Shown here: in pieces, positions 4,166 to 63,852 of the stretch
Numbering within the stretch: the stretch's first letter is position 1
How the letters are laid out: each line of letters opens with the position of its first letter
Source: Eledone cirrhosa
Taxonomy: Eukaryota
Assembly (NCBI GenBank): GCA_964016885.1
Contig: OZ024756.1
Coordinates: 31,248,001 to 31,312,000 of the forward strand
Direction of reading: 5' to 3'
Length of the DNA: 64,000 nucleotides
Translations under genes and position numbers: made by a program
Notes under the pieces: generated by a model
The model's input: the letters and a program-made list of their open reading frames with translations, nothing else
Told to the model about the DNA's origin: nothing
The model's database searches: none

Positions 4166-4605
4166 TCCGAATTGGTATGTTAGAGACAAGTACATATGTT
4201 GTTGAGGTGTATAATATTGTCAAAACTCTAATATGCCCAGTACCTGGTTGGGTTGTTATTTCATTGAGGAACTGGAATCATAACCAACCTGCGCACTTCG
4301 TCGAGTGCTCCAGCCTGCATACTGAGGTGTTGGTATACAACCAACATATACTCAAAATCTCTCTCTCTATATATATATATATAATTGGAGGCTTAGTAAA
4401 ATCGAATCTTTGGCGGTGCAAGCAAATACGACCTACTATATGAATGAGTTAGCAAAGCACTCGACAAGGTAGGTCCTTAGAGTAATAACATACGTTTAAA
4501 TAGCTTGACAAATTGAACATTGTGGTAAGCAAAATCTAACACACAATACCAAAGTAACGAAAGAACTAAGAGGTTGAGAAAAAATACACAATATATATAT
4601 ATATA

Positions 4606-4803
4606 TAGGAAAAAGTATGACCCCGACGGCAGAGCTCAAGCCGTTTCGACGGCTATTTCTATACAGTCTAGAAATAGCCGTCGAAACAGCTTGAGCTCTG
4701 CCGTCGGGATCATACTTTTTCTTATTACCCACTCTACTACCCTAAGTATTGAGTACTCTGGTGCGTTATGGTCTATCTGGTTCCTTACCACAATTCCTTC
4801 GTT
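4606..4803 (+). mobile_element. Family A fold-back element (hammerhead-derived palindrome plus ~80-bp tail) in (TA)n
   Basis: ~56-bp inverted arms 4606-4724, then CCCACTCTACTACCCTAAGTATTGAGTACTCTGGTGCGTTATGG...CCTTCGTT; flanked by (TA)n. Confidence 0.9.
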
Positions 4804-4816
4804 ATATATATATATA

Positions 4817-5004
4817 GGGCGGTAGATTGGCAGTATCGGTAGAGAGTCGGATGCCATGTTTTCTAGCATAGTTACGTCCCTTTACGATCTGAGTTCAAAT
4901 CCCGCCGAGGTTGACTTTGCATTTCATCCTTACGGGGTCGATAAAATAAAGTACCAGTAATGCACTGGGTAATTGCTGGCCTTGTGCCTAAAGTAGAAAT
5001 AGTT
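4817..5004 (+). mobile_element. tRNA-derived SINE (family S1; central domain resembles the Meta/MESC type)
   Basis: A box TGGCAGTATCGG, B box GAGTTCAAATCC, body CTTTGC(C/A)TTTCATCCTTACGGGGTCGATAAAATAAAGTACCAG; about 30 copies in the window. Confidence 0.9.
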
Positions 5005-13447: not shown

Positions 13448-13538
13448 ATAACAAAGAGGGTGTGGTAAGATACCAGGTGGACCATAACGCACCAGAGTAC
13501 TCAATACTTAGGGTGGTATAGTGTGTAATAGGAAACCA
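13448..13538 (-). mobile_element. Family A tail-only copy
   Basis: GTGTGGTAAGATACCAGGTGGACCATAACGCACCAGAGTACTCAATACTTAGGG between (TA)n tracts. Confidence 0.85.
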
Positions 13539-13991: not shown

Positions 13992-14077
<86 letters not shown>

Positions 14078-14081
<4 letters not shown>

Positions 14082-14271
14082 AAAAAGTATGACCCCGACG
14101 GCAAAGCTCAAGCCGTTTCGATGGCTATTTATGGACTCCAGAAATAGCCGTCGAAACGGCTTGAGGTCAGCCGTCGGGGTCATACTTTTTCCTACTTCCC
14201 TCTCTACTACCCTAAGTATTGAGTACTCTGATGCGTTATGGTCCATTTGGTTCCTTACCACAATTCCTTTG

Positions 14272-14273
<2 letters not shown>
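14078..14273 (+). mobile_element. Family A fold-back element
   Basis: Same palindrome plus tail as 4606-4803, flanked by (TA)n. Confidence 0.9.
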
Positions 14274-14327
<54 letters not shown>

Positions 14328-19041: not shown

Positions 19042-19071
19042 CCTGATGAAGGGCTTATGCCCGAAACGTCG
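19042..19071 (+). ncRNA. Minimal hammerhead ribozyme motif
   Basis: CTGATGA a GGGC-ttat-GCCC GAA ACGT C: canonical core with GUC cleavage triplet; helix I 5' strand lost into (TA)n. Confidence 0.75.
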
Positions 19072-21255: not shown

Positions 21256-21477
21256 CTCACTAGTGAAGCCACAGAATGTGTGGCGAAAGAGCTTTAAAAA
21301 TAAACAAACAACTATCAGGTTATTAAACCAACCAACCGTAAATTCGGAATAAATTGAGCTCCGGCCGTTTTGACAGCTACATCCGAACTGTGGCCGGAGC
21401 TCAGCCGTTGGGGCCGTAACTCTTTTCCTATTAACCACTCTACTACCCCAAGTATCAAGTACTCTGGTGCGTTATGC
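21256..21477 (+). mobile_element. PLE-like fragment with degenerate HHR (21256-21297) fused to a diverged family A copy (21352-21477)
   Basis: ctca CTAGTGA a GCCACA-gaatg-TGTGGC GAA AGAGCT T; then GAGCTCAGCCGTTGGGG...CCACTCTACTACCCC. Confidence 0.65.
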
Positions 21478-23615: not shown

Positions 23616-23659
23616 GTACACCAGTTTAGCCTCCTGTTACTTCATTTATATATATATAT

Positions 23660-23794
23660 TGGGAAAAGTATGACCCCGACGGCAGAGCTTAAGCCGTTTC
23701 GACGGCTATTTTCCTATTTCCCACTCTACTACCCGAAGTATTGAGTACTCTGGTGCGTTATGGTCCCTCTGGTTCCTTACCACAATTCCTTTGT

Positions 23795-23795
<1 letters not shown>
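23660..23795 (+). mobile_element. Family A copy with internal deletion
   Basis: Left arm GGAAAAGTATGACCCCGACGGC...GGCTATTT joined directly to the tail. Confidence 0.85.
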
Positions 23796-23833
<38 letters not shown>

Positions 23834-28495: not shown

Positions 28496-28540
28496 GTGTG
28501 TGTAGTTACATATACAAAGAAGGTGTGGTAAGATACCAGA

Positions 28541-32320: not shown

Positions 32321-32394
<74 letters not shown>

Positions 32395-32396
<2 letters not shown>

Positions 32397-32496
32397 CGAA
32401 GGAAATGTGGTAAGGAACCAGGTGGACCATAACGCACCAAAGTACTCAATACTTAGGGTAGTAGAGTGGGTAATAGGAACGAGTTACTCGTTCCTA
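32395..32496 (-). mobile_element. Family A tail copy with short terminal palindrome
   Basis: AACGAAGGAAATGTGG...TAGGAACGAGTTACTCGTTCCTA. Confidence 0.88.
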
Positions 32497-33623: not shown

Positions 33624-33666
33624 ACGGTGCTGACGATAGCTAATAAGCTTGAAACTAGTACATCGT
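33624..33666 (+). ncRNA. Minimal hammerhead ribozyme motif inside a ~140-bp inverted repeat
   Basis: ACGGTG CTGACGA t AGCT-aata-AGCT t GAA ACTAGT A CATCGT: 6-bp helix I, intact core. Confidence 0.8.
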
Positions 33667-35074: not shown

Positions 35075-35122
35075 TGAGCTCTGAGGAATACCAAGAGTAT
35101 GAAACAGAGATCTGTCAGCTTA
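35075..35122 (+). ncRNA. Hammerhead ribozyme motif inside a ~104-bp inverted repeat
   Basis: TGAGCT CTGAGGA ATAC-caaga-GTAT GAA ACAGA-ga-TCTGT C AGCTTA: intact core, GUC triplet, 6-bp helix I. Confidence 0.8.
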
Positions 35123-38674: not shown

Positions 38675-40068
<1,394 letters not shown>

Positions 40069-44000: not shown

Positions 44001-44038
<38 letters not shown>

Positions 44039-44040
<2 letters not shown>

Positions 44041-44144
44041 CGAAGGAAATGTGGTAAGGAACCAGGTGGACCATAACGCACCAAAGTACTCAATACTTGA
44101 GGTAGTAGAGTGGGTAATAGGAACCAGTAAGACCCCCTTACTGG

Positions 44145-44148
<4 letters not shown>
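44039..44148 (-). mobile_element. Family A tail copy with short terminal palindrome
   Basis: ...GAACCAGTAAGACCCCCTTACTGGTTC then (TA)n. Confidence 0.88.
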
Positions 44149-44206
<58 letters not shown>

Positions 44207-47457: not shown

Positions 47458-47764
<307 letters not shown>

Positions 47765-49264: not shown

Positions 49265-49639
<375 letters not shown>

Positions 49640-50908: not shown

Positions 50909-51313
50909 CTTTCACTACAATCTCGTATTTAGTATTTTTCTCCACCTATTAAACTTTTCTATAGTTTAGCAATACCAATGAGAGATTTGGTGATTGGGGG
51001 GATGGAGTAGTTACCGGAAATTGTTTTTTATATATATTTTTTTTAATATATTTATTTCCTCATTTACTTATTCCTTCAGTCCCCCCCCCCCTTCTCCAGT
51101 ACACTTTTTTCGACCTTCTATACATCATTCTTAGAATCTACTGTATAGATTTCACTTTCAACGCTTGACTGGGTTTCCCCCACTCCCTCTTTGTTCTACA
51201 GGCAAGTTCAGCTACCCTTACCTTCCACTAAATGCCATGATAGAATCATCTATCTTTACAACAAATTTTTGACCAATCCTTTTGACAATTACTATCTTCC
51301 CATATATGAAATT

Positions 51314-51408
51314 ACCCCCTGAGAAGTTCGGCTATTTATTTACCAGGCTAAACATTTTTATATAGTCCCGAATTAGCCCCGAAATGGCCTGAGCTCTGCC
51401 GTCGGGGT
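51314..51408 (+). ncRNA. Near-complete parental hammerhead of family A
   Basis: ACCCC CTGAGAA gttc GGCTA...TAGCC cc GAA ATGGC-ctgagctct-GCCGT C GGGGT: helix I ACCCC/GGGGT; core differs from CTGANGA at one position. Confidence 0.7.
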
Positions 51409-52384
51409 CATACTCGTTCCTATATATATATATATATATATATACATGCATATACACATGTAGATAGAGAGATATGAAATGGTGTTCTACGTGTGACATA
51501 AGCTTTCGTGATGATTAAATAATTCCAATACTTTCATCAAAGTACTTCGATTATTTATCGATGTCGTCGTCTGAAATTTTCAATAACTTCTTAGAGAATT
51601 TAAGTCACGATTTAATTAGATAAAAAGGAAGAAGCTTTAAGTTTACTTCGCATCACTTTTCGAACAATGATTCCTTTTCAATGTCAGACTAAAAGCTTTA
51701 AGGCATTTACTTTCTTCCTTTTAAAATCCAGGTTTGAAAAAAATGCCACTGTTTTAACTTTGCCTTTCATTTCAATTCTAGGTAGGATCGATAAAATAAA
51801 CCCAGATTACTGTTATTGATTTTGTAGTTGTTATTGTTTTGCTCGTTTCAATTGTTGATGTTGTTTTTGTTGTTGTTTTGCATCAAACCAGATCTAATCA
51901 ACCAGACAGATCGATGATCAAAGGCAATTTAACCATGCTCATCCGGGTTTTTTCCTTAGAAATAACTAATCAAGCTACAGATTTACAATGTGTGCTTCCT
52001 ATCTAAGTTGGTAGGATTTGGATTGAATAAATTTGCCCTTTTATTTCTAGCATGTAAAATGACTCTGTTCATACAATTAGGTGTCAGAAATATGAGCTAT
52101 CATGAATATCTTCTCTGCTATATTTTCCCTGCAGCCAATATCTTGCAACTGTTCAAGGAAGCCAACAACACTGCTACTCATATCGCATTGGGAGTAGGGA
52201 AAAGCTGGGAAGGCCATGGATACGACACCTTACTAAGAGAAATTACATTACCAAAATATCAAATCTGATTAAGTAAAGTAAACTACTAAGCTCAAAGTGG
52301 TTCCAACCTTGACAGTCGCATAAAGGCGTATTAGAACCCATATATTATATGTCTACGTATAATGATTTATTTATTCTTTACTTC

Positions 52385-55574: not shown

Positions 55575-55634
55575 TTTTATAGCTCTGATGAATCCTACGG
55601 TTACGTAAGGAAGAAACATTGTAAGCCAATAAAA
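55575..55634 (+). ncRNA. Minimal hammerhead ribozyme motif
   Basis: ttttataGCT CTGATGA a TCCT-acggttacgta-AGGA a GAA ACATTGT A AGCcaataaaa. Confidence 0.75.
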
Positions 55635-55779: not shown

Positions 55780-55857
55780 AGTCAGGAGCCCGATGGCTGA
55801 GCTCCGTCCGTGCGTTATGGCGCACCTGGTTTCTTACCACACTTTTTTTGTTTGTTA
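55780..55857 (+). mobile_element. Deleted family A copy
   Basis: CCCGATGGCTGAGCTCC joined to GTGCGTTATGG..CACCTGGTTTCTTACCAC. Confidence 0.7.
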
Positions 55858-62644: not shown

Positions 62645-63425
62645 TTAACTGCATCAGGCGGTGGATTGGCAGTATCGGTAGAGGGTCGGACGCCATGCTT
62701 TCCAGCATAGAGTGACGTCCCTTTACGATCTGAGTTCAAATCGCGCCGAGGTTGACTTTGCCTTTCATCCTTACGGGGTCGAGAAAATAAAGTACCAGTA
62801 ATACATTGGGTAATTGCTGGCCTTGTGCCAAAAGTAGAAACAATTATTTAATAACTGCATCAGGCGGTGGATTGGCAGTATCGGTAGAACGTCGGACACC
62901 ATGCTTCGTTGCATAGAGTTACGGCCCTTTATGATCTGAGTTCAAATTGCGCCGAGGTTAACTTTGCCTACGATCCTTAGGGGGTCGATAAAATAAAGTA
63001 CCAGTAATGCACGGTTATAATTGCTGGCCTTGTGCCTAAAGTAGAAACAATTATTAATAACTGCAATAGGGCGGTCGATTAGCAGTATCGGTAACCAATG
63101 CTTCGTAGCATAGAGTTACGGCCCTTTACGTTCTGAATTCAAGTTCCGCCGAGGTTAACTTTACCTTTCATCCTTACGGGGTTGATAAAATAAAGCACCA
63201 GTAATACACTGGTGCCCATTTAATCGATTTTCCCCTACCCCAAAATTGCTGGCTTTGTGCCTACAGTAGAAACAATTATTATTAATAACCGCAATAGGGC
63301 ATTTGATTGGCAGAATCGGTAGAGCGTCGGACACCATGTTTGTGGTATGGAGTTATGTCCTTTTACGGTCTAAGCTCAAATTCCGCCAAGGTTACCTTTG
63401 CCTTTCAACCTTACAGGGTCGATAA
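62645..63425 (+). mobile_element. Head-to-tail array of four S1 SINEs
   Basis: Copies at ~62657, 62863, 63069, 63297, each preceded by the spacer TAAC(T/C)GCA. Confidence 0.9.

Positions 63426-63852
<427 letters not shown>

Follow-up and report, generated by a model that had tools for sequence, protein, structure and literature searches.

How does a palindrome of about 200 bases, built around half of a hammerhead ribozyme, come to lie in a (TA)n microsatellite? The question is raised by an element at positions 4605-4806 of a 64,000-nucleotide stretch of the Eledone cirrhosa genome (assembly GCA_964016885.1, contig OZ024756.1, positions 31,248,001 to 31,312,000 of the forward strand; hereafter the window), where it is flanked on both sides by (TA)n runs. 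An earlier reading of the letters (the sequence-only reading) had correctly located it at about 4606-4803 and had taken it for a stereotyped, self-propagating element. We find that these palindromes are minimal insertions of a Hydra-clade Penelope-like element (PLE) and not an independent element; their inverted repeat, tail and (TA)n targeting are PLE traits already known. Each palindrome probably consists of two short copies of the 5' end of this PLE, placed head to head in (TA)n, with one complementary DNA (cDNA) primed per target strand and both likely running off the capped 5' end of the RNA.

Two arms with a common 5' stop and two fixed 3' ends

Arm positions are counted from the first A of AGTCC in the parent element, set to 0. 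Both arms stop at this A, which lies in loop II of the hammerhead just 5' of the 3' strand of helix II; the pivot had been placed in helix II itself, and the mapping moves it into the loop. The 3' ends of the arms lie at +60 (short arms) or +141 (tail arms), each at a TAT shared with the target. Among the first 91 tail-end matches, chosen without regard to their 5' side, 46 had their 5' end within -8 to +8, only two fell between -99 and -9, and eight were long. An adjacent inverted partner accompanied 59 of the 91: 46 of these partners had their 5' end within -8 to +8, 48 ended exactly at +60, and two, from one locus, ended at +141. A few 5'-end values near -4 are inflated by the palindrome.

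The pairing of the arms was selective. A short arm was joined to a tail arm in 85 of 113 junctions from the fetched loci, two tail arms were joined in 2 and two short arms in none, with one arm unclassified in the remaining 26. Long head-to-head pairs, which were hand-picked, combined short and tail arms in 10 of 12. Both arms belonged to the same subfamily at eight diagnostic columns in 51 of 73 pairs (shuffle mean 21, maximum 30), and some short arms were joined to tail arms without any overlap between them. PMC11167929 describes a PLE protein that nicks both target strands, extends each of them, and begins at two internal sites, which set the limits of the tail. A second cDNA primed on the opposite strand had been one of the origins suggested earlier, and the pairing of +60 with +141 ends favors it.

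A non-parental G at the arm starts

Genome-wide, 477 junctions were found with both arms at 0. By hand count, 28 of the first 50 have a single G:C pair between the arms; 4 read C-W-G, so that each arm carries a G, and none reads G-W-C; a single A/T separates the arms in 4, nothing in 6 and other sequences in 8. The parent carries T at -1, or C in one subfamily, so the G is non-parental. Where an arm runs directly into (TA)n and has G or C at -1 (n = 95 after removal of five duplicate rows, hand count), the base is G in 68 cases and C in 27. All 20 G-bearing, (TA)n-joined loci that were fetched start cleanly at G-AGTCC; most are single arms, of either length and from several subfamilies. Mutation does not explain the extra G, because long arms show G at -1 only three times genome-wide, against 10 times at -2 and 5 at -3. 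L1 insertions carry an extra G as the mark of a capped 5' end (PMC11702581).

Around the stop the sequence reads TTAGT or TCAGT, an initiator-like context that all subfamilies keep, and a TATA-like 8-mer lies at -29 to -31. Both resemble promoter motifs. Since the copies are homologous, the two motifs count as one observation and not as many. No match to the consensus of the downstream promoter element was seen by eye at +28 to +32. A spliced leader or 5' exon before the AG was considered and rejected, as the AG is preceded by a single G only. The Drosophila virilis Penelope has been reported to possess an internal promoter that includes an initiator (PMC2377424).

The parent Penelope-like element

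Several of the 30 closest genomic copies of the element run on upstream without inversion. In L026 this continuation leads into an open reading frame (ORF), and a search with that ORF returned 20 loci, five of which comprise a pseudo-long terminal repeat (pLTR), tail, untranslated region (UTR), ORF and second pLTR. The unit measures 2.66-3.23 kb (3.07-3.23 kb in four of the five full copies), with an ATG at about +231, and shows pLTRs from partial tandems, an inverted 5' copy and an optional tail. The 81-nt tail of the palindromes continues into the UTR and ORF in L031, L040, L041, L044 and L048.

None of the 20 loci retains an unbroken ORF. Their open stretches encode a reverse transcriptase (LYRDDG) and, at the C terminus, a GIY-YIG domain (VIY..YIG), together with DKT (read as SDKTG in L031, L034, L037, L040, L041 and L048), RWR for RWK, a CxCX5C linker, and CxxC and CxH, which flank E and N; CCHH is absent from them. 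The protein alignment mixed N- and C-terminal fragments and served only for reading motifs. A Pfam scan of two parent fragments matched no family. The Atlas neighbors carry RVT_1, HTH_animal and GIY-YIG (with very high scores), and the top Atlas clusters are mostly molluscan, on very few records. The Hydra clade is defined by a C-terminal GIY-YIG, DKT, RWK, CxCX5C, CxxC and CxH, the lack of CCHH, and insertion into (TA)n, and its members are generally shorter than 3 kb and carry a canonical hammerhead (PMC8557442). On these motifs, the parent is classed as an endonuclease-bearing (EN+) PLE of the Hydra clade, and the PLE origin proposed in the sequence-only reading is borne out by a parent found upstream of the same sequence.

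Abundance of the family

BLAST of the focal element against the window gave 14 clusters. The count of about 14 loci made earlier thus holds, all named loci being family members, although not all are fold-backs and the one at 28517 is a 26-bp scrap of tail. Both arms reach helix II at 4605, 14077 and 49405 (short plus tail) and at 39905 (short plus short); the remaining loci are tail fragments, single arms, fold-backs with a shortened tail, older or deleted copies, and one non-inverted long arm. Exact patterns found 3,927 fold-back junctions genome-wide, and 28,802 tail ends followed by (TA)3, in line with the (TA)n targeting noted earlier; the reversed control patterns gave no match in either case. 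In 39 evenly spaced 10-kb stretches (390 kb) we counted 20-21 family loci. Scaled up to a genome of 3.0 Gb, this amounts to roughly 1.6 x 10^5 loci, with a Poisson range from about 1.0 x 10^5 to about 2.5 x 10^5.

Any target-site duplication of the palindromes is hidden by the (TA)n. Contigs from four sequencing runs of one study were compared at the focal locus; an empty target site was not recovered among them, and the comparison brought out (TA)n ends that were loose at +60, together with joints of many kinds starting from the pivot.

Proposed route of insertion and its alternatives

Transcription would start at the A of AGTCC, inside the ribozyme, so that the 5' end of the RNA would carry only the 3' half of it. 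The endonuclease of the element would nick both strands of the (TA)n, and each nick would prime, through its TAT match, at one of two internal start sites lying 60 and 141 nt from the cap. Both cDNAs would run off the capped sense RNA, with the reverse transcriptase copying the cap as C, and host end joining would then fuse the cDNAs at their 3' ends, losing a few bases or adding templated ones. The resulting mini-insertions are most likely dead ends.

Several observations weigh against this reading. The 5' end falls well short of 0 in 35 of the 91 tail arms, and some arms run one to five parental bases beyond it. G is a minority at -1: of the first 100 matches of an arm-start pattern, 68 carried T there (29 of these being long, parent-like arms), 20 carried G, 11 C and 1 A; at least eight of the 20 G cases can also be read as opposite-arm sequence, and the four arms joined directly to (TA)n in this set carried G in none. 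The junction and (TA)n-joined samples were picked by patterns that favor young, complete junctions, nearly all on the first-listed contigs. An identical G would also result if a C were added without a template at the end of any RNA, and cap and start site alike are deduced from genomic sequence. The pairing rule, too, has exceptions: the palindrome at 39905 in the window and one of the 12 long pairs are both short plus short.

The same two cDNAs could instead have ended where RNA structure stalled the enzyme at the base of helix II, or at the uncapped end of a processed RNA, with a non-templated G. The stop does lie in a predicted structured region, the 5' ends scatter over several bases, and the genomic origin of the cap argument suits this alternative as well. 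We nevertheless regard it as unlikely: the stop is in a loop, reached after the enzyme has passed helices I and III and the 3' strand of helix II; of the arms joined to (TA)n with a start at +33 to +42, about 55 in all, no more than about 4 show an unexplained G (hand count); and the initiator-like context is kept in all subfamilies.

A single cDNA that folds back and primes itself at helix II, as the sequence-only reading had also suggested, or self-priming on an antisense template, as proposed for head-to-head PLE palindromes (PMC3846280, accessible parts), would yield the near-perfect palindromes, and the templated duplications held by a few junctions and the rare variants common to both arms in a few copies (e.g. 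L195) point the same way. A fold-back at helix II would, however, retain the parent loop and 5' strand. Both are absent, the left arm being the exact inverse of the right arm and not the parent's 5' helix strand, and single arms stop at the same base with the same non-parental G. Neither these nor the G on each arm (4 of 50 junctions), the short arms joined to non-overlapping tail arms and the fixed +60 end are accounted for, which makes self-priming quite improbable.

High copy number and terminal inverted arms would also suit a master palindrome, similar to a miniature inverted-repeat transposable element (MITE) or a short interspersed nuclear element (SINE), copied as a unit with its center decaying later. 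The junctions speak otherwise. The 85 short plus tail junctions hold 58 different centers, and although some centers recur, the commonest (15 of 85) has no fixed orientation relative to the tail: its G belongs to the short arm in eight copies and to the tail arm in seven. Given this diversity and the two orientations, a MITE-type master copy is not supported, nor is the stereotyped element envisaged earlier. Moreover, 52 of 58 mini arms share their subfamily signature with a long, ribozyme-bearing arm, and long insertions have the same layout, with no transposase-type ends; we give a master copy very little chance. Transcribed mini arms may contribute in a minor way, which is hard to tell apart because the products would look the same. 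Several centers contain short templated duplications, as would be expected of end joining, the pathway suggested by the junctions. The one-site-per-arm pairing, the common stop and the non-parental G together argue against fold-back, antisense self-priming and a master MITE alike.

The layout of non-LTR retrozymes, head-to-tail tandems with whole hammerheads, was not encountered. Locus L244 (G000:C3:187249900-187250600) holds four head-to-tail copies of the G-started short arm with a 74-bp period, and this four-unit tandem also lacks the 5' half of the core.

The hammerhead ribozyme and the long copies

The right arm of the focal copy has the half-hammerhead anatomy reported earlier (Table 1). 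In the parent pLTR, helix I is followed by UUGANAA, then by helix II and its long loop, GAAA, helix III, whose loop is palindromic, and GUC. In the mini-element the 5' half of the hammerhead core is replaced by the inverted arm, as had been stated; the core that is lost is UUGANAA and not the CUGANGA that had been assumed. Among 81 copies, part of which were picked by a pattern requiring A8, 67 had a U3-A8 core, 12 C3-A8, 2 U3-G8 and none C3-G8, and position 7 took all four bases. The expectation that some copy would have an intact CUGANGA upstream was thus not borne out in its letter (0 of 81), the compensated U3-A8 core standing in its place. A pattern admitting either core gave 6,838 matches, with G8 in two of the first 100 rows and C3-A8 in 21 of them (hand count); the window copy at 51314-51408 is of the C3-A8 form as well.

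Every pairing check, with GUC, was passed by 51 of the 81 copies, and in 31 of 52 copies folded the hammerhead fold lay within 1.1 kcal/mol of the minimum. By sequence and predicted pairing, the parent pLTR holds a whole type I hammerhead with a U3-A8 variant core. Rfam returned no hammerhead match in the parent pLTR, and none in the window among the best 150 of 297 rows, nearly all of which were microsatellite-driven microRNA (miRNA) matches. The motif CTGANGA..GAAAC matches the window at four sites, none of them at a family locus (19043-19067, 33630-33655, 35081-35105 and 55585-55617; 0.38 expected); these are probably hammerheads of other PLE families.

The mismatched C3-A8 core should be impaired, yet its subfamily has multiplied. 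Ribozyme mutants still insert in vitro (PMC11167929), and this, with the abundance of the C3-A8 subfamily, weighs against an obligatory ribozyme cut. Arms starting at the predicted cut, +41, made up about 20 of about 55 loci found with a pattern favoring that position; direct joins numbered about 13 at +41 and 1-6 at neighboring positions, or up to 11 at +39 and +40 together if CpG decay is allowed for. This modest excess gives a weak hint of the predicted self-cleavage. When the 3' ribozyme and the first 50 nt of the RNA were folded together as two strands, without constraints, the outcome was a dimeric hammerhead in which the leader GUC lay at the cut site. Cleavage of the half-ribozyme in trans, by an RNA supplying the other half, is plausible on such folding.

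Long copies have the same short plus tail head-to-head layout but run through position 0 with no mark, and each of the five full-length copies includes at least 140 bases upstream of 0. Their template would therefore have lacked a cap stop. They likely come from a tandem read-through transcript or from a ribozyme-made circle, such as has been proposed for PLEs (PMC4209133, accessible parts); both fit. For these copies it is hardly credible that a strong-stop cDNA jumped from the capped 5' end to the 3' repeat in LTR fashion, with the minis as failed jumps, since, although redundant termini, spanning 0 to the predicted cut at +40, would permit a jump, G at -1 in long arms is not in excess of its neighbors and all five full-length copies reach past 0. 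Strand transfer with retention of the cap is likewise unsupported by the -1 base counts in long arms.

We tentatively raise the possibility that the promoter inside the ribozyme acts as a switch, with uncut capped RNA giving twin minis and RNA cut in trans and circularized giving full-length copies. The whole ribozyme at the 3' end would pair with the capped half through the palindromic loop 3 and cut off the capped 41-nt leader; the RNA would close to a circle, on which the same two start sites would give more-than-unit, full-length copies. If so, the uncut branch would have left its fossil record in the more than one hundred thousand minis, and each insertion of a PLE would be a pair of cDNAs, one per start site.

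Family members in the window

The features of the focal copy and of the other family members are collected in Table 1.

Table 1. Parts of the focal palindrome and related loci, in window coordinates
Feature	Position	Strand	Remark
Left (TA)n target, focal copy	4593..4604	.	sequence
Short arm, parent +60 to +5 inverted	4605..4660	-	3' end at first start site, TAT shared with (TA)n
Head-to-head junction, 4 bases	4661..4664	.	varies between copies
Tail arm, 0 to +60	4665..4725	+	4665 = inferred RNA start
Tail-arm parts: helix II 3' strand; GAAA 4683-4686; helix III with palindromic loop; GUC triplet 4703-4705; helix I 3' strand			
81-nt tail, +61 to +141, start of parent 5' UTR	4726..4806	+	3' end at second start site, shared TAT
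Right (TA)n target, focal copy	4807..4816	.	sequence
Tail fragment	13448..13535	-	
Fold-back copy, short + tail	14077..14278	+	
Partial fold-back	21352..21476	+	older subfamily
Short arm + tail arm starting near +52	23658..23798	+	
Scrap of tail end, 26 bp	28515..28540	-	
Tail fragment	32392..32479	-	
Single tail arm 39689-39830 (-) beside short + short palindrome 39905-40012	39689..40012	.	pairing-rule exception
Tail arm from +41 (predicted ribozyme cut) + short inverted stub	44034..44150	-	
Short arm to 0 + tail arm from about +52	47561..47717	+	older subfamily
Fold-back copy, short + tail	49403..49602	-	
Non-inverted long arm ending at +60	51092..51423	+	whole hammerhead 51314-51408, C3-A8 mismatched core
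Short-arm stub + tail end	55780..55852	+	older subfamily
Single tail arm 63422-63548 (-); short arm to -1 + tail arm from about +65 at 63612-63750	63422..63750	.	

The older subfamilies (window 21352, 47562 and 55780; L051, L061, L066 and L150) differ in their helix II and III sequences and keep the palindromic loop 3 and the stop position. In the window at 39689-40060, the tail arm, the short plus short palindrome and an inverted copy of their spacer form one larger inverted structure. Family members are often inserted in the (TA)n flanks of earlier members, producing clusters (L004, L045, L266/L267 and L063).

After the (TA)n of the focal copy comes an abundant SINE-like repeat, about 190 bp long (window 4817-5003), which recurs at many loci (L004, L011, L014 and L022); it presumably resembles the tRNA-derived SINEs of octopus, as a candidate only. 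From window 28541 onward, and likewise in L021, there is a fragment whose translation resembles that of the 3' end of an RTE-type long interspersed nuclear element (LINE), in both cases beside (TA)n.

Comparison with known systems

What is new here is that one arm extends to +60 and the other to +141 almost always, that both share a stop in loop II, and that a non-parental G stands at that stop. No description of a cap mark, of one-site-per-strand pairing or of a start site within the ribozyme was found in searches of an open-access library, which omits most subscription papers. PMC8557442, PMC3846280 and PMC11167929 describe as open the question of how PLEs come by their inverted repeats, tails and pLTRs. 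The family offers thousands of natural single-base read-outs of the PLE insertion reaction, and these suggest that the template was a capped sense RNA, that each target strand used one start site, and that the RNA start splits the ribozyme. For annotation, it matters that the family loci, for all their likeness to MITEs or miRNA hairpins, are debris of PLEs.

The published systems compared here are described from the accessible parts of the cited papers. The parent shares with Hydra-clade PLEs the C-terminal GIY-YIG, DKT, RW[K/R], the linker motifs, the lack of CCHH and the (TA)n target, as well as a hammerhead in the repeat, an inverted 5' copy and a tail (PMC8557442). It differs from them in unit length (3.07-3.23 kb in four of five copies versus less than 3 kb for most listed members), in its U3-A8 core (CUGANGA in all 24 listed Hydra rows) and in its tail, which is 81 nt where 30-40 is usual; its hammerhead also differs from that of the listed Hydra-1_oBim, and minimal twin insertions dominate in Eledone (PMC8557442).

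In vitro, the Poseidon element of Anolis (PAc) likewise uses an AT-rich target, nicks and extends both strands, starts at two tail-bounding sites and takes uncut RNA as template (PMC11167929). It belongs to another clade, and the Eledone sites are 81 nt apart and lie in the 5' UTR. The Eledone start sites are paired one per strand, whereas PAc showed no strand difference; neither head-to-head run-off products nor a cap mark are described for PAc in the accessible text (PMC11167929). Rotifer Penelope elements resemble the Eledone family in their head-to-head inverted pLTR, one-sided tail and initiator-like and TATA-like pLTR motifs; antisense self-priming is favored for them, while the G mark in Eledone points to a capped sense template (PMC3846280).

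The Cercyon PLEs of Schistosoma share the U3-A8 core, an unpaired base near the helix II 5' end, the palindromic loop 3 and motif pairs on opposite strands 100-700 bp apart; in contrast, Eledone has a full helix III stem of 5-6 bp and a loop II of about 30 nt that would contain the start site (PMC4209133). Non-LTR retrozymes are also small, non-coding, PLE-derived units tied to type I hammerheads, but they are head-to-tail with whole ribozymes, whereas the Eledone minis are head-to-head and lack the 5' half of the core (bioRxiv 10.64898/2026.07.22.740005). In the twin priming of L1, a second cDNA is also primed from the other target end and an extra G is found at full-length 5' junctions; the L1 arms copy adjacent parts of the RNA, whereas the Eledone arms both copy its first 60 nt from fixed start sites (PMC11702581).
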